Shown one piece after another: positions 12,985 to 64,000 of a DNA stretch of 64,000 nucleotides (its first letter is position 1; each line of letters starts with the position of its first letter). Origin of the DNA: an uncultured Clostridia bacterium (GTDB taxonomy: Bacteria; Bacillota; Clostridia; TANB77; CAG-508); contig OV788638.1 in the NCBI GenBank assembly GCA_928721565.1, positions 204,348 through 268,347 on the forward strand, read 5' to 3'. A model generated the notes under the pieces. The model was not told the origin of the DNA, did no database searches, and was given only the letters and a program-made list of their open reading frames with translations. Made by a program: the position numbers and the translations under genes.

Positions 12985-13911
12985 CTACTTTGCCACCTTT
13001 TCTTTCTTTTTAAATATTTTTTTGATTTTTTCTTTTATATCTTTTTGATTTGTTTTTACTTTTGATTCATTTAGTCTTTTGGTAACTATATTACTAATAA
13101 GAATCTTTTTTAAGACATCTTCTCTAACATCAGCTATAAGTGTACCATCTTTTGCTACTGATACTTTACCTGTTTCTTCTGAAACTATTATTGCTATACT
13201 ATCTGATTCTTTAGATATTCCAATTCCTGCTCTATGGCGTGTTCCTAATTCTTTTGCAATATCTTGGTCTCCCGCTAGTGGTAACATACAAGCTGCAGCA
13301 GCTATTTTATTATTGCTTATTACAACAGCCCCATCATGTAATGGTGTGTTAGGTACAAATATATTTACTAATAATTGTGGTGAGACTTCTGCATCCATTG
13401 GAATTCCTGTTGCTATTATATCTTTTATTTGAATGTCTCTTTCTATTACTATTAGTGCACCAGTTCTTTTTTGTGCTAATTCATATACAGCAATTACTAC
13501 TTTATATATATCTTCCTTTGTTTTTGTAATTATATCTTTATCAAATCCAAAAAATCTCGAAAATTTGTTAGTTCCTCCAAGTTGTTCTAATGCACGCCTT
13601 ATCTCTGGCTGGAATATAATTATTATAAGTATTACTCCCCAGTCCATTACAGTTGTTAAAATATAATTTAATATATGTAAATTTAATATTCCACTTACTG
13701 CTGTTGCTATTACTAAAAATGCTATTCCTTTTACTAATTGCCATGCTCTAGAGTCCTTTACTATTCTTAACAATTCATATGCTAAAAATATAACTATTAC
13801 TATATCTAGTATTAAAGAAATTAATTTAACTGGATATTCTTGATACATTTTTATATATGTTAATATGTTTTGTTCGTAAAAATTATTTAATACTACTCCT
13901 ATGTTTCCCAT
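12985..13911 (-). CDS. cdaA: Membrane diadenylate cyclase (DAC domain, CdaA-like)
   Basis: Three N-terminal TM helices followed by a DAC domain with the LHDGAVVI (DGA) and GTRHRAGIGIS (RHR) motifs. Confidence 0.75.
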   Translation of the reverse strand: MGNIGVVLNNFYEQNILTYIKMYQEYPVKLISLILDIVIVIFLAYELLRIVKDSRAWQLVKGIAFLVIATAVSGILNLHILNYILTTVMDWGVILIIIIFQPEIRRALEQLGGTNKFSRFFGFDKDIITKTKEDIYKVVIAVYELAQKRTGALIVIERDIQIKDIIATGIPMDAEVSPQLLVNIFVPNTPLHDGAVVISNNKIAAAACMLPLAGDQDIAKELGTRHRAGIGISKESDSIAIIVSEETGKVSVAKDGTLIADVREDVLKKILISNIVTKRLNESKVKTNQKDIKEKIKKIFKKKEKVAK

Positions 13912-25645: not shown

Positions 25646-26305
25646 TTATACATCTGCTTTTGCTAATATTATTGTTCTTGCTTTACTATCATCTGTACAT
25701 GTTGTTAATGATATTTCAATTGCACCTTGTGTATCTCTTGTTATATAATCTGATTCATTTTCTGCTGCCTCAAATTTATTATATATAGTATATGCAAGTC
25801 TCTTGCCTGTAGAATCTGTAATATATATTTTATCTCCTACATTTAATTTTTTATTATTTGAGAAAAATAATCCATTTCTGTAATTGTGTCCTGCTATTGT
25901 TGTATTTCCTGGTTGGTTTAGTCCAACACCATATAATATAACTACAGATGTTTCTAGTGCTTTTGGTGAATATTCATATTGCTCTAATATAGGGCATTTT
26001 AAATTTGTTGCTGGTATCTCTATTGTTCCAGCTACATCAAAACCATTGTATTTTTTCTTTTTGCCATTTGTTGAGTCTGTGCCATCACCTTCATCAACTC
26101 CATCAAATTTAACATCGTTTGTACCATTGTCATTAGAATCTGCAAGTCCATCTCCAAATGAATCAACAAAGTCTTCTGAACTATTTTTAGTTATATATGT
26201 TTCATAATATTTGTATCCTAATACACCTATAATAGCTATTATTGCTATTACAATTACTACTAAAAGTATTGTTAAAAAATTACTATATTTTTTACTCATA
26301 TGCAA
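25646..26305 (-). CDS. Sortase-family transpeptidase (class B-like)
   Basis: An N-terminal TM anchor, the catalytic His context AGHNYRNGLFF and ISLTTCTDD (the TLxTC motif). Confidence 0.75.
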   Translation of the reverse strand: MHMSKKYSNFLTILLVVIVIAIIAIIGVLGYKYYETYITKNSSEDFVDSFGDGLADSNDNGTNDVKFDGVDEGDGTDSTNGKKKKYNGFDVAGTIEIPATNLKCPILEQYEYSPKALETSVVILYGVGLNQPGNTTIAGHNYRNGLFFSNNKKLNVGDKIYITDSTGKRLAYTIYNKFEAAENESDYITRDTQGAIEISLTTCTDDSKARTIILAKADV

Positions 26306-26366: not shown

Positions 26367-26714
26367 TTATACTATTTTTTCTCCCAATTGTTTTCCTGCT
26401 AATAAATGGAAGTGTAAATGTCCTACTTCTTGTCCTCCGTCTTTTCCACAGTTCACTATTACTCTATATCCCTTTTCTTTAAATCCCTGCTTTTCAGCAA
26501 TTTCATTTATAACTTTATAAATTTTACTAATTATTTTTTCATCTCCATCTTCCATATCTGCTAATGATGCTATATGTTTTTTAGGTATTACTAGTACATG
26601 TATTGGTGCTGCAGGATTTATATCTTTAAATGCTAATACTTCTTCATCTTCATATACTTTACTTGATGGAATTTCTCCTTTTATTATTTTACAAAATAAA
26701 CAATTCTCATCCAT
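26367..26714 (-). CDS. HIT-family (histidine triad) nucleotide hydrolase
   Basis: HLHFHLL is the HxHxHxx motif. Confidence 0.85.
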   Translation of the reverse strand: MDENCLFCKIIKGEIPSSKVYEDEEVLAFKDINPAAPIHVLVIPKKHIASLADMEDGDEKIISKIYKVINEIAEKQGFKEKGYRVIVNCGKDGGQEVGHLHFHLLAGKQLGEKIV

Positions 26715-26729: not shown

Positions 26730-28484
26730 TTAATCTAATATAGCTTTAATTCTTCTAACACCTGATGAACTAGATTCTTCTTTCTTTATTTTAAAATGGC
26801 CTAATTCAGATGTGTTATGTACATGAGGACCTCCACATAATTCTATTGACTTATCCCCTATTTTATATACAGAAACTATATCTCCATATTTTTCAATAAA
26901 CATTGCTTCTGCTCCAAGTCTTATTGCTTCATCTTTTTTCATTTCTAAGTGTTCTACTGGAATTGCTTCTTTTATCCATTCATTTACTAAATCCTCTGTT
27001 GCTTTTTTCTCTTCGTCTGTCATTTTAGCAGGATGTGAAAAGTCAAATCTCATTCTTTCTGCTGTTATATTACTACCTCTTTGATGAACATGTGAGCCTA
27101 GTACTTGTTTCAATGCTGCATTTAATAAATGTGTTGCTGTATGATATTTTGTTTCCATCTCTCCTGTTGATGCTAATCCTCCTTTGAATTTTTGCTCTGC
27201 TCCAGCTCTTGATTTTTCTTGATGTTCTTTAAATAGTTTTGTAAATCCCTCTTTATCAATTTTCATTCCATTCTCGGCAGCTAATTCTTCAGTAACTTCT
27301 GGTGGAAATCCATATGTATCATATAGCCTAAATACTATTTTTCCTGGTACAATATTTTTATTTTGTTGTTTTACAGTGTCTATTTCTTTTGAAAATTCTT
27401 TTTCACCTTTTACAAGTGTTTTTACAAACTTATCTTTTTCTTCTATTATTACTGTTTTTATTGTTTCTTTATTTGTTTCAAGTGCAGGATACATTTCTTT
27501 TAAGTTTTCCACATTCAAGTCTATTAATGTTACTAATTCATCTAATGATATTTGTAATTTATTCATATGTCTAACCATTCTACGTATTAGTCTTCTTAAT
27601 ACATATCCTCTATCTACATTACTTGGTCTTCCACCATCACATATTATCATCATACTTGAACGTAAATGTTCTGCAACAATTCTTCTACTTGCAATATTAT
27701 CTACTTTTTGTAAATCTACTAGTTTATCCATTATTGGTGCAAATAATTCAGTTTCAAATGGTGTTTCTTTTCCTTGTAATAACATTGCCATTCTTTCTAA
27801 TCCCAATCCTGTATCTACATTATGTTGTTTTAGTTTTGAGTATTCTCCATTTTCATCTTTATAAAATTCCATGAATACATTATTCCAAATTTCAACATAT
27901 TTTCCACATCCACATGATGGATTACATTCTGGTGAACACTTTGGTTTTCCAGTATCATAAAACATTTCTGTATCTGGTCCACATGGTCCTGTTTCCCCTG
28001 CTATCCACCAGTTATCATCTTTTCCAAAATAATATATTCTTTCTTCTGGAATTCCTGCTTTTTTCCAACATTCTGCTGTTAATGTATCTCTAGAACAATC
28101 TTTGTCTCCTTCAAAGCATGTTACAGATATTTTTTCTGCTGGTATTCCTAATTCTTTTGTTAAGAATTCATAACTCATTTGAATTGATTCTTCTCTAAAA
28201 TAATCCCCTAATGACCAGTTTCCAAGCATCTCAAAATATGTTAGATGGCGATTATCTCCAACTTCGTCAATATCATTTGTTCTAACACATTTTTGATAAT
28301 CTGTTAATCTTGTTCCTGCAGGGTGCTTTTCCCCTAGCAAATATGGTTCTAATGGTTGCATACCTGCTGTTGTAAATAATACTGATGGATCATTTTCTGG
28401 AATTAATGATGCTGAAGGTATTACTGCATGTCCATGTTTTTTAAAAAATTCTAAATATTTATTTCTTATTTCTATTGCTTTCAT
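26730..28484 (-). CDS. alaS: Alanine--tRNA ligase, compact form (584 aa) that ends after the editing domain and lacks C-Ala
   Basis: Class II AlaRS N-terminus (HAVIPSASLIPENDPSVLFTTAGM, WWIAGETGPCGPDTEMFYD). The editing motifs HTATHLL and CGGPHV are present. The ORF stops at GVRRIKAILD, which corresponds to about residue 740 of an 876-aa AlaRS. Confidence 0.75.
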   Translation of the reverse strand: MKAIEIRNKYLEFFKKHGHAVIPSASLIPENDPSVLFTTAGMQPLEPYLLGEKHPAGTRLTDYQKCVRTNDIDEVGDNRHLTYFEMLGNWSLGDYFREESIQMSYEFLTKELGIPAEKISVTCFEGDKDCSRDTLTAECWKKAGIPEERIYYFGKDDNWWIAGETGPCGPDTEMFYDTGKPKCSPECNPSCGCGKYVEIWNNVFMEFYKDENGEYSKLKQHNVDTGLGLERMAMLLQGKETPFETELFAPIMDKLVDLQKVDNIASRRIVAEHLRSSMMIICDGGRPSNVDRGYVLRRLIRRMVRHMNKLQISLDELVTLIDLNVENLKEMYPALETNKETIKTVIIEEKDKFVKTLVKGEKEFSKEIDTVKQQNKNIVPGKIVFRLYDTYGFPPEVTEELAAENGMKIDKEGFTKLFKEHQEKSRAGAEQKFKGGLASTGEMETKYHTATHLLNAALKQVLGSHVHQRGSNITAERMRFDFSHPAKMTDEEKKATEDLVNEWIKEAIPVEHLEMKKDEAIRLGAEAMFIEKYGDIVSVYKIGDKSIELCGGPHVHNTSELGHFKIKKEESSSSGVRRIKAILD

Positions 28485-35961: not shown

Positions 35962-36394
35962 TAATATATCTTATAATGTCTTGTGGTTCTTTAGCATTTT
36001 TCATTATTTCAAAAAATTGTGGCTTTTGAAGTAATTCTGAAACAGCACTTAAAGCTTCTATATGTGAATCAAAATCAGTGTTAGCAAATAAAAGGACATA
36101 ATATACTGGATCATTTTTAGGATTTCCAAAGTTTACTGGTTCTTTTAAAGTTATTAATGTAATTGCATTTTCCTTAACTCCCATGCTTCCTAAGCAATGA
36201 GGTATTGCTATTCCCTTAGCTACAACAACATATGGTCCAAATAATTTTACACTTTTAATTACACAATCAATATATTCTTGTGTTACAATTCCTTTTTCTA
36301 ATAATATATTTCCTGCATGATTAATTGCGTCTTCCCAATCATTACATGACTCATTTATTTTTATATATTCTGCCTTTAATATATCTTTAAGCAT
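35936..36394 (-). CDS. PTS EIIA component (mannitol/fructose/ascorbate type 2)
   Basis: GIAIPH active-site His. A stand-alone 152-aa IIA upstream of the split transketolase. Confidence 0.7.
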   Translation of the reverse strand: MLKDILKAEYIKINESCNDWEDAINHAGNILLEKGIVTQEYIDCVIKSVKLFGPYVVVAKGIAIPHCLGSMGVKENAITLITLKEPVNFGNPKNDPVYYVLLFANTDFDSHIEALSAVSELLQKPQFFEIMKNAKEPQDIIRYINEEDQKND

Positions 36395-36534
36395 TAATAA
36401 TTACCTCTTTCCATTTTTTTATTCTCACTATATATCACAAATAAAAATAATTATCAAGTTTTATAAAAAAATAATTTTTAAATTGATTTTTTTATTTAAA
36501 CAAAATAAAAAGTCCAGTTTACACTGAACTTCTT

Positions 36535-36611
36535 ATGGCTCCTCTTGTTGGACTCGAACCAACGACCTATCGGTTAACAGCCGAGCGCTCTACCAACTGA
36601 GCTAAAGAGGA
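36535..36611 (-). tRNA. tRNA-Asn (GUU)
   Basis: Reverse complement is TCCTCTTTAGCTCAGTTGGTAGAGC...CGGCTGTTAACCG...GGTTCGAGTCCAACAAGAGGAGCCA. Confidence 0.85.
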
Positions 36612-36620
36612 ATATATAAA

Positions 36621-36736
36621 ACTAGCAACAACCTATTTTCCCAGCAGGGTAACCCACAAGTATCTTCGGCACATTGGAGCTTGACTTCTGTGTTCGGGAT
36701 GGGAACAGGTATTTCCTCCATGTAATCGTCACTAGA
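36621..36736 (-). rRNA. rrf: 5S ribosomal RNA
   Basis: Reverse complement matches the Firmicute 5S rRNA: ...CCTGTTCCCATCCCGAACACAGAAGTCAAGCTC... Confidence 0.85.
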
Positions 36737-36910
36737 AAATTAATATCTACTTAATACGAATGTAATTATACTATACCTTTTTTTAAATTGCAATACTTTA
36801 TTAATATTTTTTACATTTTTTTTTAAATTATACACTATATTTACATTCAATAAAAGCACACTCAAAAATACATAGATGAAATTATATTAGAATTCTTTTT
36901 TAAAATTATA

Positions 36911-39778
<2,868 letters not shown>

Positions 39779-40023
39779 GTTTTCTAAAATTAAATCCTAA
39801 TTTTTTCAACTAGTTGTCTAGTTTACCTTATTTCATCTATATATTTTTCAATGTGCTTTCTTTGTAATTATAAACTTCGTATTACTGTGTCAAACTTCGT
39901 CATAATTTTTTCGATATATACAAGTATTATCTCAAAAATTCTTCCTTGTTTTCCTTACATTACTTGTTTATAATTTCCAACAACAATTTTTATTATTGTT
40001 TTGTGCTGTTTTAATAACAGCTT

Positions 40024-40100
40024 TGGTGGGCTCAAATGGAATCGAACCATCGACCTCATGCTTATCAGGCATGCGCTCTAACCATCTGAGCTATGAGCCC
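40024..40100 (-). tRNA. tRNA-Ile (GAU) in the 16S-23S spacer
   Basis: Reverse complement is GGGCTCATAGCTCAGATGGTTAGAGCGCATGCCTGATAAGCATGAGGTCGATGGTTCGATTCCATTTGAGCCCACCA. Confidence 0.85.
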
Positions 40101-40211
40101 ATATTTTAGAGTCTTGTCAAATGTGTTTCATTTGTATGAGCCTACTCTATTTCAAATGTACTAATTAAAGTACATTGAAAAATAAACAATAGATCCTTTA
40201 AATCCTTTTCT

Positions 40212-41750
<1,539 letters not shown>

Positions 41751-41904
41751 TTTGAGTTTTTTGACTCGTTTAAACTTCTTTAATTTTTTAATCTTTTTTG
41801 ATTTACTTTTTGGTACTTTTCTATTTCTAGAAAATCACCGTTTGGTTTATTCTCTAAAGGATTCTATTGTTTACTTTTCAATGTACTTTTTTGTTTGCTC
41901 ACTT

Positions 41905-42245
41905 GGTGTGAACGAAACTTATTTTAGCATACCTTTTCTTTATTGTCAATACTTTTTTAAAAATATTTTTAAAATATTTTTTGTCTCGTTTTTGAGGCAA
42001 AATAAAAAACTAGTAGTTGGTGTTTTTACTATTGTTTTGTTATTACTTTTTACTAATTTCTTGTGTATTATTTTTTAATATTTTTGTCTGTTGTTCGGTA
42101 CATTTATTATCTTAACACCGTTGTCGAAAAATGTCAATACTTTTTTTGAATTTTTTCTTAAAATATTTAACTTTTTTTAAAATTGTTTTTTTCGCTTAGT
42201 GCTCAATTATATTAACATCTTTCTATAAATAAGTCAATACCTTTT
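41905..42245 (-). promoter_or_regulatory. Three tandem sigma-A-type promoters with AT-rich UP regions upstream of the rRNA operon
   Basis: Read on the minus strand: TTGACA-17-TAAAAT (41949..41921), TTGACA-18-TAAGAT (42138..42109) and TTGACT-17-TAATAT (42237..42209). Confidence 0.5.
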
Positions 42246-42257
42246 TTTATAATTTTT

Positions 42258-42503
42258 TTAAATTTCCACTAATATCAAATCATCACTTATGCATTTTATA
42301 TTTTCCCATGGTATTACAATATCATTACTATTAGAAAATAAGCTCATCAAACGATTGTTACTTCCAGGCACAATTATAGAAGTTATCTTACCCGATTTTA
42401 AATCTGCGCAAACATCTTGTACAAATCCCAATCTTTTTCCATCCACTATATTTATAACTTCCTTATGTTTAAAATCTAATCCTTTATCTTCCACAGATAC
42501 CAT
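42258..42503 (-). CDS. ymxH: YlmC/YmxH-family sporulation protein (PRC-barrel)
   Basis: GKRLGFVQDVCADLKSGKITSIIVPG...IPWENI pattern. An 81-aa protein adjacent to sigG. Confidence 0.7.
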   Translation of the reverse strand: MVSVEDKGLDFKHKEVINIVDGKRLGFVQDVCADLKSGKITSIIVPGSNNRLMSLFSNSNDIVIPWENIKCISDDLILVEI

Positions 42504-50255: not shown

Positions 50256-51364
50256 GGTTTGTCAAACATATGTCACACTTTATTGATGAATCTAGTGTTT
50301 CGTATACCAAATATGATATGTTGGCTCTACAATGCTTGAAATTCCTCATATTTCTCATTTGGACTTTTCCATCCTAATGGTTTCATTGGAAAGTTATTAT
50401 ACTCTCTTGACCAATGCCTTAATTTTTCTTTAAAATCTTCAAAACTTACAAATATTCTCTTGTAATAAAATCTTTCTTGATCCTTTCTATGACTTCTTTC
50501 TACTTTTCCGTTATGCCTTGGTGTCCTTGGTTTTATTAGTTTATGCTCTATTCCCATTTCTTCCATTCTCTTTTCAAACATTGTCTTCTCTTTTGCTTTT
50601 CTCGAATTTAGTCTATTTGTAAATTCAAATCCATTGTCTGTTTGTATACATTCTATTTTATATTTGAATTTCTTTATTATTATTTCTAAAAATTGTGTTG
50701 ATGCATAGGTACTATGTTCTTTGCTAGCCCATAATACTCTCTGCCTTGTATACTCATCTATTGCTGTATATTGATAATATTTCTCTTCTAGCTCTTTCAA
50801 TTCATTTGACATACATTTCTGTGGCACATATTTTACATCTATTTGTATTCTTTCTCCTGGATGACTCATTTTCTGATATGGTTTTGGTTCATATTTTTTC
50901 TTTTTACTTGGTGCTTTTTTATATATTCCTAGTCTTTGCATCACCCTATACAAACTCGTTATTTGCCTTGTATATCCGTTTCTTATCAATTTTATCCACA
51001 ATACCACTAACCCTGCGTCTGGGTTTTGAGCTTTATATTTCTTTATCATTTTTATTTCTTCCTGTGTATGTTGATTTGGGTGTGAATGTGGTCTTCTTGA
51101 TTTATTCACTAATGATTTTCTACTTCCATCATATTTTTCTCTCCATCTATATATTGTTTTTCTATGCTGTTTATATCTTTTCGCTGCTTCTGTCACTCCG
51201 TGTTTTAATGAATATTCTACAACTGATTGCTTAAATATTATATCTTGTGTTATACTATTCATAGGAAATACCTTCTTTCGATATTAGTTTTGTGGTAAAA
51301 ACATTATATCATATTGGTATTTCCTTTTTTTATTCTTTAGTGTGACATATCTATTGTAAACCTA
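50256..51364 (-). mobile_element. IS481-family insertion sequence (about 1.1 kb, single transposase ORF) with roughly 26-bp imperfect terminal inverted repeats
   Basis: IRL is taggtttgtcaaacatatgtcacact. The reverse complement of IRR is taggtttacaatagatatgtcacact. The element is flanked by identical 27-bp direct repeats. Confidence 0.7.
50327..51262 (-). CDS. IS481-family DDE transposase (N-terminal HTH plus rve integrase core)
   Basis: D-D-E triad context IQIDVKYVP / IQTDNGFEF / HNGKVERSHR, with an N-terminal HTH KTIYRWREKYDG. Confidence 0.8.
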   Translation of the reverse strand: MNSITQDIIFKQSVVEYSLKHGVTEAAKRYKQHRKTIYRWREKYDGSRKSLVNKSRRPHSHPNQHTQEEIKMIKKYKAQNPDAGLVVLWIKLIRNGYTRQITSLYRVMQRLGIYKKAPSKKKKYEPKPYQKMSHPGERIQIDVKYVPQKCMSNELKELEEKYYQYTAIDEYTRQRVLWASKEHSTYASTQFLEIIIKKFKYKIECIQTDNGFEFTNRLNSRKAKEKTMFEKRMEEMGIEHKLIKPRTPRHNGKVERSHRKDQERFYYKRIFVSFEDFKEKLRHWSREYNNFPMKPLGWKSPNEKYEEFQAL

Positions 51365-51366
51365 TA

Positions 51367-56692: not shown

Positions 56693-56992
56693 TTAGTCTT
56701 CATCTACAAAATTAAATTCGTCTTTATATTTTTCTTTAAATATTTCAAATACTTTATTTAGTATTTCTTCATCTTCAACTCCTACATATGATTCTTCTTC
56801 TGAATCATCATCAGTGTCTTCTAATTTTAATATTACTACTTCTCCTTCATCTTCTTCACCTTCACCAGTTATTGGTAATAATACTACATATTCTTCGTCA
56901 TCTAATTCTACTAAATCTAAAAATTCAAATTGAACCTCATTTCCATCTTCATCATTTAGAATTACTATATTATCTAATTCTTCGTTTTCCAT
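56693..56992 (-). CDS. DUF1292-family acidic protein
   Basis: EVQFEFLDLVELDDEEYVVLLP...EVVILK pattern. Conserved neighbour of ruvX. Confidence 0.7.
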   Translation of the reverse strand: MENEELDNIVILNDEDGNEVQFEFLDLVELDDEEYVVLLPITGEGEEDEGEVVILKLEDTDDDSEEESYVGVEDEEILNKVFEIFKEKYKDEFNFVDED

Positions 56993-57053: not shown

Positions 57054-57473
57054 CTAATTTTTTATTTTATTTAGATATGTTTCTAAAATATATACTGCAG
57101 ATATAGTATCTACTATATTTCTTTTTTTATTCTTGCCTACATCTAAGAAATTCATCGTTTTATGTGCAGCTACTGTAGTCAATCTCTCATCAATTGTCTC
57201 TATTTTTAGCTTATTGTATTTACATTTTAATTTATGTATAAATTTCTCTGTTATTTCTGTTCTCGCTGATGGAGTTCCATTCATATTTATTGGTTTTCCT
57301 ATAACAATTGTATCAATTTCATATTGTTCTAATATTTCATCTAATCTTTTCAAAATTACTTTATCAGAACCACTGTTATGAATTGTTTCTAATCCTTGCA
57401 CTGTTATATTTAATGCATCTGTTATTGCTATTCCTGTTCTTGCATCTCCATAGTCTATTCCCAATATTCGCAT
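57054..57473 (-). CDS. ruvX: Putative pre-16S rRNA nuclease / Holliday-junction resolvase-like YqgF
   Basis: MRILGIDYGDARTGIAI RNase H-like motif. Confidence 0.9.
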   Translation of the reverse strand: MRILGIDYGDARTGIAITDALNITVQGLETIHNSGSDKVILKRLDEILEQYEIDTIVIGKPINMNGTPSARTEITEKFIHKLKCKYNKLKIETIDERLTTVAAHKTMNFLDVGKNKKRNIVDTISAVYILETYLNKIKN

Positions 57474-57481
57474 ATTTACTC

Positions 57482-57736
57482 CTATTCTTCTAATCCAATA
57501 TATTTTATAACCATACTCTCTAAAAGTTCATCTCTTTCTATTTGTCTTATCTTATTTCTTGCATCTTTGTAACTTGTTATATATGTTGGATCTCCTGATA
57601 GTATATATCCAACTATTTGATTTATAGGATTATATCCTTTTTCCACCAATGCTGCATATACTTCCTTTAGAATTTCTTCTTTTTTGGCATTTTTTTCTTT
57701 TTCAAAACTAAAACTCATTGTTTTATCAAAATCCAT
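57482..57736 (-). CDS. ireB: UPF0297 / IreB-family protein
   Basis: [38 protein letters not shown] matches the DUF965/IreB consensus. Confidence 0.75.
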
Positions 57737-57755: not shown

Positions 57756-58898
57756 TTAAATACATGTAATATCATTTTCATTTTTATCAGCATTATCAAC
57801 ATATTGTTCCAGTTTTTTCAAAACTTCTTCCATTCCTGTTCCTTTGTAATATGTCGTTAATACAAAATTAAGTTTAGCTTTTACAACTTGTGGTGTTTCT
57901 TCCTTTTTCTTCTTTTTAGTTTTTCTATCTATTTGTTCAATTTCTACTTCATCTACATTATCGTTTTGTGGTAATGATATTTCTATTTTTTCTGCTTCAT
58001 TTTTTACATCTGTTATGAATGTAATTACTGATTCAATATCAACTCCTGAAAATACTATTACAAACTTAGGTCCCATGTATCTTATATATAGATAATCTTT
58101 TGATATATTATTTTCTATATATTCACTTATATCCATTATAACTTGATTTCCTAATTTTCTTGAATAATTATCATTTATTTCTTCTATGTTAGTTATTCTA
58201 TACATACATACTGTAGATGTAGTATATTTATCAATTATTTTTTTACCTTCTCCATATAAATATTCTTCTGAATATAGTCCTGTAAATAAGTCTTTTCTTA
58301 CTATTGATTCCAATGTCTTTTGATGTACTACTGTTCTTAATACTGATACTATATTTTCTTTTATTACTTCAAATATTGTAGTATCAATATTGTCAAAATC
58401 ATGTGGAACACCACTTTCTATTATCCAATACCCAATATATACATTTTCTATATATATTGGAAAAAAGATTGCTGACTTTGCTCTTCCGAATTCCATTTCT
58501 TGATATGGTAATCGTTCATTGTCATTATTAACAGTTACATATTTAGGTGTAGCTGTTGCTATACTATCTTTAAAAATTGGAACATCTTGTAATTTACTTA
58601 ATGTATTCCAATGTTTTGGATCAACATTAGAAGCTTTTACTTCATATTCAGCTCCATTAAACACAACTATTGTAGAATATTTTATTTCATATTTTTCAAT
58701 TAGAATATTATTTATTTTTTGAATCTTTTCATCTACTGATGAACATTCTCCTATTGTACTTAAGAAATCTTGTAACACCCTTAAATTATTAGCTTGTCTG
58801 CTTAAATTATTAAATTGTTGTATTTTTTTATGTATCGTTATATTATAAATTAGTAATACAATTATAATTGCAACTAATATTCCAACTATAAATATCAA
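57756..58898 (-). CDS. Membrane-anchored protein with a sensor-like middle region and a degenerate GGDEF domain (RYMGPKF replaces RYGGEEF)
   Basis: N-terminal TM helix; DLFTGLYSEEYL is a GGDEF N-terminal motif; IDxF-like RITNIEEINDNYS; a GG(D/E)EF position reading RYMGPKF; no RxxD I-site. Confidence 0.55.
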   Translation of the reverse strand: MIFIVGILVAIIIVLLIYNITIHKKIQQFNNLSRQANNLRVLQDFLSTIGECSSVDEKIQKINNILIEKYEIKYSTIVVFNGAEYEVKASNVDPKHWNTLSKLQDVPIFKDSIATATPKYVTVNNDNERLPYQEMEFGRAKSAIFFPIYIENVYIGYWIIESGVPHDFDNIDTTIFEVIKENIVSVLRTVVHQKTLESIVRKDLFTGLYSEEYLYGEGKKIIDKYTTSTVCMYRITNIEEINDNYSRKLGNQVIMDISEYIENNISKDYLYIRYMGPKFVIVFSGVDIESVITFITDVKNEAEKIEISLPQNDNVDEVEIEQIDRKTKKKKKEETPQVVKAKLNFVLTTYYKGTGMEEVLKKLEQYVDNADKNENDITCI

Positions 58899-58917
58899 CT
58901 TTCTTCTCCCTCCATTA

Positions 58918-61188
58918 CTAATAATTTTTTTTCATTTGATTTAATGTATTATTCATTCTTGGCGAAAATCCATTACTATTATTATTTCTTATTGATGGTG
59001 GTGCATACTTTTCTTTTTTATTACCACTTTTGTATACCATATTAGCTAAATTCCTTAAACTTTGAATAAATTCTTTAGAGTATCCTTTTAATGATATATC
59101 ACAGGTTACTAATCCATCTAAATATCTTAAATATGATTTAAGATCAAATGGTATTGTAACATGTTTTACTGTTTTTCTATCAAATAATTCTTTTCTAACA
59201 GTCATTGATGCATCATTATATATTGAAATTCCACCTATTAATATTCCTTCACTAATCTCTCTTGTATTTATGAATTTATTTAATACTACTCTTGCTTTTG
59301 ATTCTTCAAACATGCCTTTATCACTTAATTGTCTTAAAAATGCTGTAAGTGGTTGTATTGTTAAAATATCCATTGATTGAACTATATATATTTCTTGAGC
59401 ATATTTAAAATATCTATTTGGTGTTGTAAAATCACAATCCATTAATACAACTGTATGCATTTCTAATAGAGTTTGTACTATTGGCTCAACTGCCTCTAAA
59501 TTTTCATCCTTCTCAAATGGAGATGTGTATATAGTTAAATTTTTATGAGCTTGTATTCCATTTGCTTTACCTATTTTTAAATTTTTCATTATATAATTTG
59601 ATTGATTTCGTAGTTCTTCTTCATTTTTGGTATATATATAATATGCATTTCTGTTTTGTGTTAAATCCAATATCGCTGTATTTATACCGTTTGTTGATAA
59701 TATTTCTGCCACATTGTTTATTAAAAATGATGTTCCATTTTTACTAGTTCCAACAAATGCTGCTAGTTTTTGATTTGAGTTTATTATATTATCTATATTT
59801 AATTCAGGATATTGTTCTATTTCTTCTTTTTTATTAATTTCGTTTGACGTTTTTAAACTATTTAGAACATTTGCATATTGTTCTTCAATTCTGTCATCAT
59901 TATCATTATTTTCAAATCCTGGCAATGTTGTTTCTTCTTCACTATCTTCAAATCCTGGTAGTGTTGTTTCTTCTTCACTGTTTTCGAATCCTGGTAATGT
60001 TACTTCTTCCTCACTATTTTCGAATCCTGGTAAAGTTGTTTCTTCTTTACTGTTTTCAAATCCTGGTAAAATTGTTTCTTCTTCACTGTTTTCGAATCCT
60101 GGTAATGTTGTTTCTTCTTGTTCTTCAACAGGTTTAACCTTTGGCGGTCTTCCTCTTTTTCTTTTTGGTTGTTCTGCTGCTGGTTCTTCTACCTTCTTTT
60201 TTGGTGGTCTTCCTCTTCCACGTTTTACAGGTTTCATTTCTTCTTTTTCTATATTTTCAATCTTTTCTATTTCATCAGGTATTGTTTCTGGAACTACTTT
60301 TGGTCTTTTCTCACTAATTGGCTTAGATGTATCTGCTGGTTTTGTAAGTATTTTTTTCTTCTTTAATCCTATTGTAGAAGGAATAACTACTGGTGCACTT
60401 GGTTTTTTTGTTCTACTATTGTTTAATAGTATTTCGCTTGTTCCCTCTTTTTCTTGTGGCTTTTCTAACCTTACTTTATCAGATATTTTATTACTATATG
60501 AGTTTACTTCTTGATATTTTTTAGATTTTTCTTCTAAAACTGCTCTTACATTAAGTGGCAAGCATTTGCTTATTACTTTTAATTGTGTATCATTGTATTG
60601 GCTTGCTATACTGTCAAAGCTTTCTACATATTTTTCTTCATCATTACCAATTCTTTTGTAATGTGCTAATATATTTTGAATTTCTAATTCACTAACATCA
60701 TTTTCATCATCTTTTTCATATGTTACATCTTCTGTATCTATCTTATAATAGATTTTAGCTTCTTTTTTTGAACGTGGTCTTTTTATTAGTTTGCAAACCT
60801 CACTTGCGCTTCTGTCATTTCCTAATAGTATGTCATATATTCCTATTCCAAATAATTTAACTAATATTTGTTCTGATTTGTTTCTTCTTTCTGTACATAT
60901 TAAAATTATAGGAATATTTTCTCCTTTAGTATTTGAAGCTTCATCACTAATACTATCTAATCTATCAAATAAGAATTTGTCCATTTGTTCATAATCAGTA
61001 TTAACATATTGTTCCAAATCTTCGCTTATTACTATTCTATCATATGTTTTGTCTCTTTGTAATTCTTTTAATATTGCATTAAAGTAATAAACATTTTTGT
61101 ATGATATTATTTGTTTATATTCTGCTTGATATTTTTTTATTATAGCTTGTGATGTATTTTCATTACTTACTGCAAATAAAACTTTCAT
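58918..61188 (-). CDS. 756-aa multidomain protein: N-terminal atypical receiver-like domain, basic AT-hook region, six 12-aa tandem repeats, and a C-terminal ParA/MinD-like domain with a degenerate P-loop (TadZ/CpaE-like ends with a roughly 300-aa insert)
   Basis: Receiver-like MKVLFAVSNE...RIVISEDL...IPIILICTERR...GIYDILLG. AT-hooks KRGRGRPPKKK and KRKRGRPPKVK. Six EETTLPGFENSE repeats. A Walker A-like FVGTSKNGTSF and Walker B-like VVLMDCDFTTP about 110 aa apart. Confidence 0.5.
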   Translation of the reverse strand: MKVLFAVSNENTSQAIIKKYQAEYKQIISYKNVYYFNAILKELQRDKTYDRIVISEDLEQYVNTDYEQMDKFLFDRLDSISDEASNTKGENIPIILICTERRNKSEQILVKLFGIGIYDILLGNDRSASEVCKLIKRPRSKKEAKIYYKIDTEDVTYEKDDENDVSELEIQNILAHYKRIGNDEEKYVESFDSIASQYNDTQLKVISKCLPLNVRAVLEEKSKKYQEVNSYSNKISDKVRLEKPQEKEGTSEILLNNSRTKKPSAPVVIPSTIGLKKKKILTKPADTSKPISEKRPKVVPETIPDEIEKIENIEKEEMKPVKRGRGRPPKKKVEEPAAEQPKRKRGRPPKVKPVEEQEETTLPGFENSEEETILPGFENSKEETTLPGFENSEEEVTLPGFENSEEETTLPGFEDSEEETTLPGFENNDNDDRIEEQYANVLNSLKTSNEINKKEEIEQYPELNIDNIINSNQKLAAFVGTSKNGTSFLINNVAEILSTNGINTAILDLTQNRNAYYIYTKNEEELRNQSNYIMKNLKIGKANGIQAHKNLTIYTSPFEKDENLEAVEPIVQTLLEMHTVVLMDCDFTTPNRYFKYAQEIYIVQSMDILTIQPLTAFLRQLSDKGMFEESKARVVLNKFINTREISEGILIGGISIYNDASMTVRKELFDRKTVKHVTIPFDLKSYLRYLDGLVTCDISLKGYSKEFIQSLRNLANMVYKSGNKKEKYAPPSIRNNNSNGFSPRMNNTLNQMKKNY
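59911..60126. repeat. Six tandem 36-bp coding repeats inside the 756-aa gene
   Basis: ttc[a/g]aatcctggtaatgttgtttcttcttcact[a/g]t[c/t] x6, encoding (E)ETTLPGFENSE. Confidence 0.9.
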
Positions 61189-61191
61189 TTG

Positions 61192-61593
61192 TTACCCCCT
61201 TCCAAACTTCACAACAATTGCAAATGCAAGCGGTAAAATTTGGCATATTACTAATATAGTTACGAATGATATCATCATTACTAAACCTTTTTCTTGTGTG
61301 TCTAATTTTCTGATTCCTATCACATATTGATATATTGCACTTACTGCAATTCCTAAAAAACATAATGGTATACTATATATTCTTATTAAATTCAATATGT
61401 ATGCTGTTAATCCATATGCATCTGAACCATATTTTTGTTTATATTCTTCAAGTGTCTTTGCTGTATTTTCTTTTATTTTTATCAATTGACTCTCATTTTT
61501 TTCATCTATTATATTTTCTGCTGCATATACTTGATTACATCCAAATATCACTATTGTCATTAGCAATATTATTATTGCAACTAGTTTTTTCAT
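61192..61593 (-). CDS. Small membrane protein (134 aa): signal peptide, a roughly 60-aa extracytoplasmic segment and two C-terminal TM helices. First gene of the operon.
   Basis: The start is probably MKKLVAIIILL at 61593, with AGGAAAGGAA upstream. Its 3' end overlaps the 756-aa gene by 4 nt. Confidence 0.45.
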   Translation of the reverse strand: MKKLVAIIILLMTIVIFGCNQVYAAENIIDEKNESQLIKIKENTAKTLEEYKQKYGSDAYGLTAYILNLIRIYSIPLCFLGIAVSAIYQYVIGIRKLDTQEKGLVMMISFVTILVICQILPLAFAIVVKFGRG

Positions 61594-61782
61594 ACCATAT
61601 TCCTTTCCTTTCACTTGTTTCATATATTTCTTACCTATATATCATACAATAGAATTAAAAAAATAGCAAGGAAAATCTTGCTATTTTTTTATTTTTTTGA
61701 CTTTATTTTATTTTTAACATTATTTGACATTTTTTCATATTTATGGTATTATTTTCATATTCAAATGAAAAGGGGTGTTTGT

Positions 61783-61917
61783 ATGAAACAGTTGGGTAAT
61801 ATTATTATATCTGTTTATAAAGATGAAAATAATAAAACTAATTTTCAAATTAAAACAGATAATGAAGACATTTTACCAGTATCCTATGTAATTGAAGATA
61901 CATTGAAAATGTATTAA
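61783..61917 (+). CDS. Small hypothetical protein (44 aa), divergent from the operon
   Basis: AAAGGGGTG RBS then an ATG. The product is MKQLGNIIISVYKDENNKTNFQIKTDNEDILPVSYVIEDTLKMY. A hairpin terminator follows. Confidence 0.3.
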   Translation: MKQLGNIIISVYKDENNKTNFQIKTDNEDILPVSYVIEDTLKMY

Positions 61918-62361: not shown

Positions 62362-63042
62362 TTAATTTATTGTTGTGCTTGTTTTTCCAGTTCCAACTAC
62401 ATTTTCTTGCAACGACCTCCATGTATTACATCCTACTATTCCATCTGCTGACAACCCTCTTGAACTTTGATATCGTTTTACTGCATTCACTGTTTGTGTT
62501 CCAAACACTCCATCTAGTCCTCCAGTTCTATAACCCAATGTATTTAAGTCATCTTGTGCTATACACACATAATTTCCTCTGCTTCCCTGTCTTATTAATG
62601 GATATCCTCCGCTACTGCATGCTGGTGTTCCAAATCTTCTATCAAAATGTACCCATGTTGGTGAAAATGAAACAGGTTCAACGTATGTCCAAACTCCAGA
62701 ATTTCTGGCACTGTTTCTTAAAACATTTCTTTGTGAATTTGTCAAGTTCTGTCCAACATCAAATGCAGTTCCAGCATAATGCTGACTTTGGCTTCCATGT
62801 CCACCTTCATATGGTCTCTTAAATGCAAACCCAACATATATTGGTGCACCATATATATATCTTTGACTATTCCATGCTTGCATTGTTCTTTTATCTGTCC
62901 AGAGTATATTACTTTTACTTGAACCTCTAAATTCTCTTACTCTTAAAGTATTATTAGTATTATACGGCATTGCTTCACTTTCTCCTCTAAAGAAAGTTTC
63001 CATTCTATTTGTATCTTGATTATATACTAAAATTTTTGCCAT
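62362..63042 (-). CDS. Peptidase M15 (VanY / D-Ala-D-Ala carboxypeptidase-like, LAS zinc peptidase) with a C-terminal peptidoglycan-binding domain
   Basis: SQHYAGTAFDV is the SxHxxGxAxD zinc motif. VEPVSFSPTWVHFD. The C-terminal PG_binding_1 pattern is LGYRTGGLDGVFGTQTVNAVKRYQSSRGLSADGIVG. Confidence 0.7.
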   Translation of the reverse strand: MAKILVYNQDTNRMETFFRGESEAMPYNTNNTLRVREFRGSSKSNILWTDKRTMQAWNSQRYIYGAPIYVGFAFKRPYEGGHGSQSQHYAGTAFDVGQNLTNSQRNVLRNSARNSGVWTYVEPVSFSPTWVHFDRRFGTPACSSGGYPLIRQGSRGNYVCIAQDDLNTLGYRTGGLDGVFGTQTVNAVKRYQSSRGLSADGIVGCNTWRSLQENVVGTGKTSTTIN

Positions 63043-63098
63043 AAAAAAACTCCTTTCATAATATATCTTTATATATTATGAAAGGAGAATGTTTTTTG

Positions 63099-63848
63099 TT
63101 ATTTTTTCTCAGTACACTTTACTATTACTCTCTGTTTTGCATCATCTGTACATGTTATTAATGTGACCTCTCTTTTTCCATTAGTATATTGCGTTGTATC
63201 AGATCTATCATTTGGGTCAACCGTATGTAAGTCATATACTTCATATTGAACAGTTCTTTGACTTAAATCTTGTATTTCTACTATATCTCCTACTGTTAGT
63301 GAAGGAACGTCGCTAAAAAATACACCTTTTCTTCTATAATTATGTCCAATTATGCAAAGGTTACCTACTTCGTTAGGATTAGCTCCCCAAAATTTATATG
63401 GTGATACTTTCATAACTTCAACATTTGTCGTTTGTGCTAATATTGGATAACTTATATTAATTTTCGGAATTTTTACCACTCCTATGGTTTCATATTCTTT
63501 TCCATCTGAAGCAACATACTTTGAACTGGCTGTGGCCATATTAAGTTGTTGTATATTAGAATTTTCATTTGTTTCGTCCATTTGTTCTGCAACTTCTTGT
63601 GTTATTTTTACTACTAATGCATTAGTATCTGGTCCAACAGTCGTTTTGTCTTTTTTATTCGTCAAGAAAGATAATATATCCCCAGAAATGCCTTCTTGTC
63701 TATTTCTATCATATTCAGAATACACATATAATCCAAACAATGTTATTATCATGAATATTGATATAAAAAACAATAATCTATATATTTTCTTTTTTCTTTT
63801 TAATTCTGGTGTTACATATATTTTTTCAGTGACCAATATTTGATTCAT
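63099..63848 (-). CDS. Sortase-family transpeptidase (second paralog)
   Basis: TM anchor, CIIGHNYRRKGVFF catalytic His and VTLITCTDD (TLxTC). The start is probably MNQILV at 63848; the track ORF extends to 63881. Confidence 0.75.
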   Translation of the reverse strand: MNQILVTEKIYVTPELKRKKKIYRLLFFISIFMIITLFGLYVYSEYDRNRQEGISGDILSFLTNKKDKTTVGPDTNALVVKITQEVAEQMDETNENSNIQQLNMATASSKYVASDGKEYETIGVVKIPKINISYPILAQTTNVEVMKVSPYKFWGANPNEVGNLCIIGHNYRRKGVFFSDVPSLTVGDIVEIQDLSQRTVQYEVYDLHTVDPNDRSDTTQYTNGKREVTLITCTDDAKQRVIVKCTEKK

Positions 63849-63867
63849 ATGTCCTCCTTTCCGAAAA

Positions 63868-64000
63868 TTATTGAGTAACATTCTCTATAGTAATATAATC
63901 AATTAACTTATTTTGTTCTTTATAAAATATTGAAACTTTGTATTTTTGGTCGTCTCCAACTTTTCCCAACATTTCATTAACTCCGTCTTGGTTTGTCTTA
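63868..64000 (-). CDS. C-terminal fragment of an unknown protein; the gene continues beyond the window end
   Basis: An open frame on the minus strand ending ...KVSIFYKEQNKLIDYITIENVTQ* at 63868. No motif is visible. Confidence 0.3.
   Translation of the reverse strand, partial: KTNQDGVNEMLGKVGDDQKYKVSIFYKEQNKLIDYITIENVTQ

Follow-up and report, generated by a model that had tools for sequence, protein, structure and literature searches.

The window, the whole 64,000-nucleotide stretch of DNA that was analysed, carries three tightly spaced and co-oriented genes on its minus strand, positioned as the initial annotation had placed them. Gene 1 (61593..61192), an ORF with an RBS-like aaaggaaagg upstream of its ATG at 61593, encodes 133 aa plus a stop codon (134 aa had been counted before). 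Gene 2 (61188..58918) encodes 756 aa, and gene 3 (58898..57756) encodes 380 aa from a TTG start preceded by GGAGGG. Between genes 1 and 2 there is a 3-nt spacer (TAA-caa-ATG) in place of the 4-nt overlap that had been described, and 19 nt, where 20 had been counted, lie between genes 2 and 3.

Transcription unit and surroundings

Another 19 nt downstream of gene 3, the conserved neighbours ireB (57482-57736), ruvX (57054-57473) and DUF1292 (56693-56992) follow on the same strand, each recognised by Pfam. A consensus scan finds a promoter-like TTGCTA-17-TATGAT (61669-61641, minus strand) about 48 nt upstream of gene 1, overlapped by a terminator-like hairpin (61656-61691, minus strand) that presumably closes the upstream tRNA unit. 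The same scan finds no terminator-like site downstream of gene 3 as far as 54800. Because of this and the short gene 3-to-ireB gap, the transcription unit probably runs on from the trio into ireB-ruvX-DUF1292. Thus, the three-gene operon of the initial annotation stands as a tight co-oriented cluster, but probably not as a self-contained unit.

The base composition of the trio is that of its flanks, and no integrase or repeats flank it. The genome is AT-rich, at about 26% GC. The alaS gene lies elsewhere in the window (26730-28484), as do glycosyltransferase genes. A Pfam scan of 39 distinct ORFs of the window, which include most though not every one of its large ORFs, and tblastn with plasmid Tad proteins turned up no tad, type IV pilus or T4SS genes, in agreement with the earlier remark that tad/flp genes are not nearby. 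Nor does the window show an active cyclase or phosphodiesterase.

The three proteins and their conservation

Gene 1 encodes a small membrane protein, as had been proposed, with a predicted signal peptide (aa 1-24, cleavage after VYA), a charged extracellular helix placed between it and TM1, and two hydrophobic helices in the hydropathy profile, TM1 (roughly aa 60-93) and TM2 (aa 104-130). Alignment shows a conserved cytoplasmic loop, GIRKLDTxEKG (aa 94-103), between the two, so in the predicted topology only about 10 conserved residues face the cytoplasm. The signal peptide, helix pair and short basic loop recall VirB2/TrbC-type T4SS pilins (PF18895, T4SS_pilin), and distant orthologues match most of that profile at 25.8 and 21.9 bits (E 1.1e-5 and 1.9e-4), the best score falling below the gathering threshold of 26.6. 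In contrast to those pilins, the window protein and its close relatives have no PF18895 match (nor does the window protein match any other Pfam family), no VirB4 or other T4SS genes lie near gene 1, and the charged extracellular helix, of about 35 aa, is an addition.

The large gene 2 product begins with a CheY-like pseudo-receiver of five beta-alpha units (aa 1-137; 60778..61188, minus strand, as for all features below). An invariant Glu56 occupies the position of the phospho-acceptor Asp, and the acidic pocket and the conserved Lys after beta5 are absent. The best single-domain match of this receiver is CpaE2. A helical bundle conserved across the family (aa 141-235; 60484..60768; pLDDT 82-87) has no specific fold match and is followed by a disordered linker (aa 236-465; 59794..60483; pLDDT below 50), which measures anywhere between about 100 and about 880 aa in 77 representatives. 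The linker holds AT-hooks, as already recognised in the initial annotation, and there are two of them, KRGRGRPPKKK (aa 322-332; 60193-60225) and KRKRGRPPKVK (aa 342-352; 60133-60165). Two such motifs are present in most closer representatives, with a constant count of 2 among near-identical strains, and are missing from nearly all distant ones. Six in-frame 36-bp tandem repeats (59903..60119), encoding E-E-T-T-LPGFE-N-S, are resolved by Tandem Repeats Finder as period 36, 6.0 copies and 86% matches. Proteins that are 79-100% identical to the query have between 3 and 7 copies, and relatives carry analogous hydrophobic-acidic repeats.

The C-terminal part of gene 2 has a ParA/MinD fold (aa 470-722; 59023..59781), so that the TadZ/CpaE-like ends noted earlier are both recovered, together with the degenerate P-loop, G480-T-S-K483-N-G485-T-S (59728-59751). 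Its pattern, GxxKxGT[ST], is kept family-wide, including in members at about 30% identity. Residues D508, D584/D586 and N637-K638 are conserved; both Walker lysines are missing and the Mg/water-coordinating aspartates are retained. After a disordered spacer comes a conserved, predicted helical C-terminal peptide, FSxxMNxTLxxMKxxY (aa 741-756; 58921..58968), which is weakly amphipathic (hydrophobic moment 0.41, a value reached by 6% of shuffles). One distant family member, P0193, ends in a MinD-like KKQFKRKFKLFGK instead.

In the gene 3 product, an N-terminal TM helix (58833-58898) precedes a GAF-like domain (roughly aa 55-190), modelled at low confidence (pLDDT 55-68), after which comes a degenerate GGDEF domain (roughly aa 195-380) with a Lys-rich insertion (aa 313-334). 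The degeneracy seen before is confirmed, RYMGPKF (58062-58082) aligning to RFGGEEF of a solved cyclase. Neither a catalytic site nor an RxxD I-site is present in gene 3, and the GTP/metal-binding residues are replaced; no known c-di-GMP-binding determinant is therefore left. The c-di-GMP-type signalling fold described earlier thus survives as a fold, with a GAF domain beside it, and the signalling part falls away for want of the c-di-GMP I-site.

Comparison with relatives indicates that all three are real, conserved genes, not chance ORFs, and that their products are under strong purifying selection; they can be described as core genes of a large group of uncultured gut Clostridia. Relatives of the large protein form 578 clusters at 50% identity, and a one-genome-per-species collection yields at least 551 candidate stretches with a relative. 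The RYMGPKF motif is unchanged in every one of 79 species, and mean column identity of the degenerate GGDEF is 76% (23 species). The order small-big-GGDEF-ireB-ruvX-DUF1292 recurs in essentially all 80 related loci, one per species, that were fetched in the synteny check. Universal presence beside ireB in related genomes, combined with annotation to a known pathway, had been named as speaking against a new system; the former is found and the latter is not, source names of relatives all being 'hypothetical protein' or 'GGDEF domain-containing protein'.

At the sequence level, the evolutionary core is the pair of genes 1 and 2. A gene 1 homologue lies directly upstream of the large gene in 79 of 83 loci (tblastn), the spacing is 3 nt wherever both gene ends are readable, and the pair still adjoins ireB at 29-31% identity. 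Two divergent clades carry the degenerate GGDEF gene, and five other distant loci lack it; the second of these clades has the full trio, with RYSGQRL as its motif. In five distant loci, L084, L086, L087, L088 and L091, the pair is immediately preceded by a PBP5/S11 DD-carboxypeptidase gene, the first four backed by tblastn. The pair adjoins miaA-hfq instead of ireB in L087, and glycosyltransferase genes lie upstream of it in L086 and L088.

Relation to TadZ and other ParA/MinD-type systems

Each part of the trio belongs to a known fold, and the combination of the three and its function are undescribed in the libraries searched, which upholds the earlier statement that no described system matches (Pfam, NCBIfam, PADLOC, PHROGs and PDB). 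An ordinary FlhG or MinD, which HMM hits were to have revealed, does not emerge; genes 1 and 2 have no match in Pfam, NCBIfam, PADLOC or PHROGs, nor in PDB sequence and profile searches.

The closest kinship is with TadZ/CpaE, which shares an N-terminal atypical receiver, a C-terminal ParA/MinD-fold domain and replacement of the canonical Walker lysine. TadZ has been described as having an atypical receiver, a Walker-A-like K/RGGXGXS/T motif and a role in polar localisation (bioRxiv 10.64898/2026.07.08.737194). A full-length homologue of the large protein heads Tad-like pilus loci on Clostridium plasmids, matching the N-domain at E 6e-8 and 4e-13 and the C-domain at E down to 8e-8 (tblastn). 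It has Pfam CbiA/ParA, and SAF/CpaB-like, T2SS/T4P-type ATPase and platform genes follow it. Because such a homologue heads Tad-like loci, the sequences indicate homology to TadZ, beyond resemblance. The large protein could then be a TadZ that localises a Tad (Flp) pilus encoded elsewhere in the genome, its position next to ireB being incidental; tad genes are known to be dispersed in Bdellovibrio (bioRxiv 10.64898/2026.07.08.737194). This is nevertheless unlikely. The gene stands outside any tad locus, none being found in the window or in the flanks (up to 8-10 kb each side) of roughly 90 chromosomal loci, and is fixed in the ireB-ruvX housekeeping operon over deep divergence. Its P-loop, GxxKxGT[ST], does not fit the TadZ motif, and it goes undetected by the Pfam models CbiA, AAA_31 and ParA. 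A disordered linker of 100-880 aa, which in the window protein holds AT-hooks and LPGFE repeats, sets it further apart from TadZ, as does the constant pairing with a two-helix membrane protein.

Similarity to MinD/FlhG/FleN lies in the short conserved C-terminal helix after a flexible spacer, comparable to the membrane-targeting sequence of MinD/FlhG, and in the MinD-like end of P0193. However, with both lysines missing there is no deviant Walker A KGGxGK[ST], the C-terminal peptide is polar as well as only weakly amphipathic, a receiver domain and long linker are added, and no MinC/MinE or FlhF partner accompanies the trio. A dedicated chromosome-segregation or nucleoid-occlusion system, replacing Soj/ParA, Noc or MinD in reduced genomes, acting on DNA through its AT-hooks and having no envelope role, would accord with the ParA/MinD fold, two conserved AT-hooks in an AT-rich genome, core-gene status and ruvX downstream. 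It too appears improbable, since distant members have no AT-hooks, the protein that always accompanies it sits in the membrane, no gene for a ParB-like or MinC/MinE-like partner adjoins, and the two Walker lysines that an ATP-driven ParA cycle requires are missing.

PelD, the c-di-GMP receptor of Pel polysaccharide, resembles gene 3 in layout, with a GAF domain and then a catalytically dead GGDEF domain on the cytoplasmic side of a membrane anchor. PelD has four TM helices whereas gene 3 has one, gene 3 lacks the RxxD I-site through which PelD binds c-di-GMP, and no pel genes accompany the trio. The BcsQ-BcsR-BcsE-BcsF set of enterobacterial cellulose secretion has a comparable make-up, with a small membrane protein alongside a protein of MinD/ParA fold and degenerate REC and GGDEF domains. 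The likeness is purely one of analogy, with a sequence relationship no closer than shared superfamilies; in the trio it is the ATPase, not the GGDEF domain, that carries the REC domain, the GGDEF protein has a GAF domain and a TM helix of its own but lacks an I-site, and no cellulose synthase is present. In the Bcs system, the degenerate GGDEF of BcsE binds the MinD/ParA-type BcsQ directly and independently of c-di-GMP, and BcsE with the small membrane protein BcsF recruits BcsQ to the membrane (PMC7439463). On these models, together with the glycosyltransferase genes of the window, L086 and L088, gene 3 might sense c-di-GMP or another nucleotide and switch on secretion of exopolysaccharide or another envelope polymer through the ParA-like protein. 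Such a role is distinctly improbable, as gene 3 lacks the I-site and has its GTP/metal-binding residues replaced, many clades keep the pair without it, no synthase or export genes adjoin the trio, and the window lacks a visible active cyclase or phosphodiesterase. That the trio is a functionless, decaying remnant of a Tad/T4SS cassette from a plasmid or ICE is very unlikely despite the plasmid homologue and the sub-threshold pilin similarity of gene 1, given purifying selection on all three genes (including the invariant RYMGPKF), fixed synteny, wide occurrence, native base composition and clean flanks.

Proposed role at the membrane and nucleoid

The reading preferred here, held tentatively and with slightly less than even confidence, is that the trio forms a membrane-docked, nucleoid-contacting ParA/MinD-type scaffold on the TadZ/CpaE plan, likely organising envelope growth or division. 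The ParA-like domain would still bind nucleotide and dimerise, probably with poor hydrolysis as proposed for TadZ, because both Walker lysines are gone and the Mg/water-coordinating aspartates are kept. The loop of gene 1, the degenerate GGDEF domain or both could hold the large protein at the cytoplasmic face of the membrane, for which recruitment of BcsQ by BcsE and BcsF is a precedent. The AT-hooks may tether it to the AT-rich chromosome; judged from the distant members that have none, this cannot be the universal mechanism of the family. The pseudo-receiver and LPGFE repeats might recruit client proteins, and a small ligand could modulate assembly through the GAF domain.

The ireB neighbourhood could be that of an old operon passed down vertically, not a sign of shared function. 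IreB/ReoM acts downstream of PASTA kinases in the control of peptidoglycan synthesis (PMC7286690). The core status of the pair and its location in the ireB-ruvX-DUF1292 unit, and after a PBP5-type DD-carboxypeptidase gene in distant clades, suggest that its most likely job is to organise the growth or division of the cell envelope in space with respect to the nucleoid, not to assemble pili. The nucleoid- or pole-positioning role suggested in the initial annotation is, from the domains present, plausible.

Organisation and distribution of the locus

All genes of interest in the trio region lie on the minus strand. Three tRNA genes (tRNA-Val/Asp/Phe, 62258-61988) precede gene 1 (61593-61192, 133 aa), encoding a small membrane protein, gene 2 (61188-58918, 756 aa), encoding the large TadZ-like protein, and gene 3 (58898-57756, 380 aa), encoding the degenerate GGDEF protein from a TTG start preceded by GGAGGG. 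These are followed by ireB (57736-57482), ruvX (57473-57054) and a DUF1292 gene (56992-56693), all three assigned by Pfam, and, directly 3' of the last, by a gene for a multi-pass membrane protein of 168 aa (56632-56126) with no match in Pfam or NCBIfam. A GTPase gene (56064-55144), YlqF/RbgA-type from sequence reading, comes next; its orthologue in the metagenomic contig L001 gives MMR_HSR1 and RsgA_GTPase matches. Gaps measure 3 nt between genes 1 and 2, 19 nt between genes 2 and 3, and 19 nt between gene 3 and ireB. The initial annotation had wrongly read the first of these as a 4-nt overlap and had counted the stop codon in giving gene 1 134 aa; the rest of its description was accurate.

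A terminator-like hairpin (61656-61691) lies between the tRNAs and gene 1, and a consensus scan placed a promoter-like site (61669-61641) just 5' of gene 1. From that site down to 54800 the same scan gave no terminator-like site, so the transcription unit, as read from sequence, probably runs on into ireB-ruvX-DUF1292. The gene for the 168-aa membrane protein occupies its position in 70 of 83 loci tested by tblastn and therefore may belong to the same unit. Rfam detected no riboswitch or leader RNA 5' of the trio, only the three tRNAs. GC content (0.24-0.33) and skews of the trio region match those of the flanks; a horizontally acquired island was rejected, composition and synteny both being against it. 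In Firmicutes alaS is often found 5' of ireB; in the window it lies 30 kb away. On the opposite strand, between the tRNAs and gene 1, lies a 44-aa ORF (61783-61917, +) whose conservation is limited to the two closest relatives, L001 and L004; ahead of it stands a strong promoter-like site, TTGACA-17-TATTAT, which has an upstream TG (61724-61752). The region 5' of the tRNAs (62362-63881) encodes a 226-aa protein that combines a peptidoglycan-binding domain with a weak match to M15 peptidases, together with a 260-aa membrane-anchored sortase, and this pair is found 5' of the trio in the closest relatives only.

A one-genome-per-species scan matched at least 600 candidate stretches, at least 551 of which encode a relative of the gene 2 protein, itself encoded here on a contig of 1.55 Mb. 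The 80 best loci of those at least 551 are all from MAGs labelled uncultured Clostridia, Clostridium sp., Eubacteriales or Bacillota, with isolate names pointing to human, rabbit, chicken and other animal samples. Wherever the contig allows, the best 80 of the at least 551 keep the order gene 1, gene 2, gene 3, ireB, ruvX, DUF1292 gene, 168-aa membrane protein gene. By tblastn a gene 1 homologue is directly 5' of gene 2 in 79 of 83 loci, most of the remainder being cut by contig ends, and the 3-nt spacing is constant wherever both ends can be read.

Among more distant loci, a small gene was called 5' of the big gene in all seven that are full-length, and the surroundings vary. Identities of the big protein in these loci are quoted over matched stretches, the same members giving 27-32% over the whole of alignment A1. 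In L084, L086, L088 and L091 (31%, 30%, 33% and 31% identity) a gene for a PBP5-type DD-carboxypeptidase is followed by the small and big genes, ireB, ruvX and the DUF1292 gene, with no degenerate GGDEF gene; the gene after ruvX in L088 has no Pfam entry on record. L085 (37%) has the small and big genes, ireB, ruvX and the DUF1292 gene, and lacks both the degenerate GGDEF gene and the upstream PBP5 gene. In L087, a close relative of a representative at 35%, the PBP5, small and big genes lead into miaA-hfq. L089 (36%) carries the small, big and degenerate GGDEF genes before ireB and ruvX, its GGDEF-type protein being 30% identical to that of the window over TM-GAF-GGDEF (E 5e-45) with the motif RYSGQRL. 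The arrangement originally described, the trio upstream of ireB, recurs in the 80 relatives wherever the contig allows; its third gene is missing from L084, L085, L086, L088 and L091. The gene 1-gene 2 pair is the invariant core, the degenerate GGDEF partner is old but dispensable, and the attachment of the pair to ireB is deep, not absolute.

The gene 2 protein and its relation to TadZ

Neither Pfam nor NCBIfam gave a match above threshold for the gene 2 protein, whole or in halves; the isolated C-terminal part gave only a sub-threshold match to PSY3, a Rad51 paralogue. The PDB, searched by sequence and by profile, yielded no more than noise from the low-complexity linker, PHROGs had no match for this protein, and PADLOC had none for any of the three trio proteins. 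The family is nevertheless large: 6,881 database proteins reach E <= 0.001 in the scored candidate set, and there are 578 clusters at 50% identity. A common plan is seen in 77 full-length representatives, namely a conserved N-block (aa 1-235), a linker of about 100-880 aa without conserved sequence, and a conserved C-block (aa ~465-756). In an AlphaFold model built on 30 diverse members both blocks reach a pLDDT of about 90 and the linker is disordered. From the model and fold comparison the N-domain is receiver-type and the C-block ParA/MinD-like, and Foldseek concurs for the C-block. The best match of the N-domain, among the receiver-only chains listed, is CpaE2. Where CheY has its phospho-acceptor Asp ('VISD') there is an invariant Glu56 ('IVISE'), and neither the acidic pair that follows β1 nor the Lys that follows β5 is present, all by inferred residue equivalence; the domain is therefore predicted to be an atypical, non-phosphorylatable pseudo-receiver.

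The P-loop of gene 2 reads GTSKNGTS and is G-x-x-K-x-G-T-[ST] family-wide, including members only ~30% identical. It fits GxxxxGK[ST] save for a Thr in place of the catalytic Lys; the signature Lys of ParA/MinD proteins is also absent, a Thr standing at that position, and an invariant Lys lies two residues ahead of the second Gly. D508, after β2, and D584 are invariant, and D586, which lies with D584 in Walker B, is at least 90% conserved. Gene 2 has the SIMIBI/ParA fold with the conserved Asp after β2 and in Walker B, but lacks the deviant Walker A motif of MinD/ParA (xKGGxxGK[ST]). Conservation extends to the final 16 residues (FSxxMNxTLxxMKxxY), for which a helix is predicted. The MinD/FlhG subgroup carries an amphipathic membrane-targeting helix at the C-terminus; the conserved terminal helix here (aa 743-755) is polar and only weakly amphipathic, its hydrophobic moment of 0.41 being matched by 6% of shuffles.

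The linker of the window protein carries two canonical AT-hooks, KRGRGRPPKKK and KRKRGRPPKVK, each an R-G-R-P core with basic flanks, which are putative DNA-binding elements. Both these and the degenerate P-loop bear out what the initial annotation had read by eye. Two AT-hook-like motifs occur in most closer representatives and are missing from nearly all distant ones, whose linkers are coiled-coil-like or made of PKVE-type repeats. The window linker also holds six 12-aa repeats, EETTLPGFENS, arising from a 36-bp in-frame tandem repeat (59903-60119). Among proteins 79-100% identical to the query (P0001-P0009 and P0274-P0287 of the database relatives) LPGF copies range from 3 to 7, with AT-hooks constant at 2, and other relatives have analogous hydrophobic-acidic repeats (LPGLD, LLDLD, NLFDL, DFDF). 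A reading of the LPGFE repeats as sliding-clamp or FtsZ-tail-like motifs, based on resemblance, was dropped.

A link to TadZ is provided by Clostridium plasmids. By tblastn, plasmids of C. botulinum and C. beijerinckii encode a relative of gene 2, a hypothetical protein of 546 aa. Its N-terminus matches gene 2 (E 4e-13), and its C-terminal part is assigned to CbiA/ParA by Pfam and aligns with the C-block in many members of the family, at E values as low as 8e-8. Its gene comes first in a cluster with genes for SAF/CpaB-like, T2SS/T4P-family ATPase, polytopic platform and pilin-like proteins and for a cell-wall hydrolase; by its predicted content this cluster is a Tad-like locus. Because the plasmid protein matches both blocks and heads such a locus, the relation of gene 2 to TadZ is one of homology and not mere resemblance. 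In both plasmid loci, L002 (9001-18633 of C. botulinum plasmid p12/29) and L003 (C. beijerinckii), the order is receiver-plus-ParA, SAF/CpaB-like, 277-aa hypothetical, T2SS/T4P-family ATPase, 669-aa polytopic, two small pilin-like and cell-wall hydrolase; both are typed as non-mobilizable, and Pfam recognition of most of the cluster proteins is poor or nil.

Gene 2 shares with TadZ/CpaE the N-terminal atypical receiver and the C-terminal ParA/MinD-like domain. TadZ has also lost the canonical lysine, its motif being K/RGGXGXS/T (bioRxiv 10.64898/2026.07.08.737194), but the Walker-A-like GxxKxGT[ST] of gene 2 has only that loss in common with it. Gene 2 also lies outside any tad/cpa locus: no TadA, TadB/C or Flp neighbours and no Tad-like cluster of the plasmid kind were found in the 64-kb window or within up to 8-10 kb on either side of ~90 chromosomal loci, which extends an earlier remark that tad/flp genes are not nearby. 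The trio is not categorically new, given that all its domains come from known superfamilies and its general layout resembles that of TadZ. The gene 2 family departs from TadZ in both motif and locus and has gained AT-hooks in the eukaryotic style, a disordered linker that bears repeats and serves as a putative hub, and two membrane partners dedicated to it. That gene 2 is a displaced TadZ serving a Tad pilus encoded elsewhere in the genome would agree with the homology, and is unlikely given these departures.

Membrane partners and possible function

The gene 1 protein begins with a cleavable signal peptide (…VYA|AEN); next come a charged helix of ~35 aa and two hydrophobic helices linked by a conserved basic loop, GIRKLDTxEKG. 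It was rejected as a lipoprotein because the Cys of the signal peptide (FGC) is not conserved. The window protein is unmatched in Pfam, but its orthologues in L086 and L088 match PF18895 (T4SS_pilin) over both helices (E 1.1e-5 and 1.9e-4) at 25.8 and 21.9 bits, below the gathering cut-off of 26.6. The PF18895 profile has been applied alongside TrbC/VirB2 for finding VirB2-like pilins, and the similarity is a lead to a VirB2-like topology, not a sign of membership. A PDB profile search with the gene 1 protein gave nothing, a search of 5.8 billion proteins gave only unnamed close relatives, and PHROGs gave one match, to a family of unknown function, over the signal-peptide region.

Gene 3 encodes a single N-terminal TM helix followed by basic residues, for which reason the remainder of the protein is predicted to be cytoplasmic. 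Its GGDEF domain retains the fold and sequence homology to PF00990, and PHROGs gives GGDEF-type matches. On alignment to DgcR, RFGGEEF is replaced by RYMGPKF, the first metal-binding 'IDID' by 'FKII', and the 'GD' of the guanine-binding loop by 'GN'. The degeneracy first noticed in the GGDEF motif (YMGPKF for GGEEF) is therefore genuine and includes loss of the metal-binding Asp. RYMGPKF does not vary among the orthologues (79 of 79), and conservation is high over the protein as a whole. The RxxD I-site is absent five residues N-terminal to the GGDEF position, where a poorly conserved S-K-D-Y is aligned (register inferred from the PDB alignment), which sets gene 3 apart from the PelD/BcsE c-di-GMP receptors. 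Gene 3 thus encodes a TM-GAF(putative)-degenerate GGDEF protein; with motif, metal site and I-site all gone, it is predicted to act neither as a cyclase nor as a canonical c-di-GMP receptor. The scan of window ORFs revealed no active enzyme of the GGDEF, EAL or HD-GYP type; a cdaA-type diadenylate cyclase gene (DAC domain plus CdaA_N) is present at 12985-13911.

The ParA/MinD family organises chromosomes, division sites, flagella, pili and secretion machines, and TadZ is the branch that gave up ATP turnover and became a localisation factor. Here a TadZ-type protein is found outside a pilus locus, in the core gene set of gut Clostridia that form a large and abundant group, all of it uncultured. 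The literature search returned nothing relevant on this gene combination. A parallel for its parts exists in BcsE-BcsQ-BcsF. There a dead GGDEF domain and a small membrane protein together dock a protein of the ParA/MinD type at the membrane, and the binding of this BcsE domain to BcsQ does not depend on c-di-GMP (PMC7439463). IreB/ReoM governs peptidoglycan synthesis downstream of PASTA kinases (PMC7286690). As the pair forms a core in the ireB operon, IreB controls peptidoglycan, and PBP5 precedes the pair in distant clades, the function favoured is the organisation of envelope growth or division relative to the nucleoid, a proposal that is put forward tentatively, somewhat short of probable.

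By this proposal the ParA-like domain would bind nucleotide and dimerise with little turnover, as is thought for TadZ. The gene 1 loop and/or the degenerate GGDEF domain would keep the gene 2 protein on the cytoplasmic side of the membrane; the AT-hooks would contact the AT-rich chromosome, the pseudo-receiver and LPGFE repeats would recruit clients, and the GAF domain would give ligand control. In its most complete form, which is doubtful, the module would be an undescribed spatial organiser in which a catalytically crippled ParA/TadZ-type protein bridges the nucleoid (through AT-hooks) to the membrane (through the VirB2-like partner and the GAF-degenerate GGDEF protein), its hub of pseudo-receiver and tandem LPGFE motifs placing wall-synthesis or division proteins. 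In a large uncultured lineage of gut Clostridia with small genomes it would assume Min/Noc/DivIVA-type roles and be wired to the PASTA-kinase/IreB pathway. If the module does link nucleoid, membrane and the IreB wall pathway, it would reveal the way growth and division are organised in these reduced genomes, and would add to BcsE-BcsQ a second, independent case in which a ParA-like protein docks on a dead GGDEF domain.

A pure chromosome-segregation or nucleoid-occlusion device, which the ParA fold and AT-hooks might suggest, is as improbable as a displaced TadZ, because distant members have no AT-hooks and the partner is a membrane protein. The GGDEF fold and the Bcs parallel could also indicate a second-messenger effector for Bcs/Pel-like polymer secretion; the missing I-site of gene 3 and the clades without the degenerate GGDEF protein make this quite improbable. 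A decaying mobile-element remnant is scarcely credible in view of the strong conservation and fixed synteny. Genes 1 and 2 are labelled hypothetical by annotation pipelines because no Pfam or NCBIfam model covers them. The gene 2 family deserves a profile model and a name, neither of which exists, and would merit them even if its function proves modest.

Other features of the window

The alaS gene (26730-28484) encodes only 584 aa, comprising the catalytic core and the second additional domain, so that the AlaRS may be a short or split one. After alaS come a 115-aa ORF (26367-26714) and then a second sortase gene (25646-26305). The regions 8419-10740 and 3204-5612 hold a 773-aa ORF without any Pfam match and, nearby, an 802-aa protein with six ChW repeats and an M14 carboxypeptidase domain. 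There is probably an rRNA operon at 36400-42500, since 36394-40826 holds no ORFs of at least 110 aa and tRNA-Asn (36536-36611) and tRNA-Ile (40024-40100) lie inside the region. An insertion of ~1.1 kb (50261-51365), carrying an rve-family integrase/transposase ORF (50327-51262), is missing from L001, which is otherwise 99.6-99.9% identical, and looks like a recent IS insertion between a gene for a 192-aa protein and dut.
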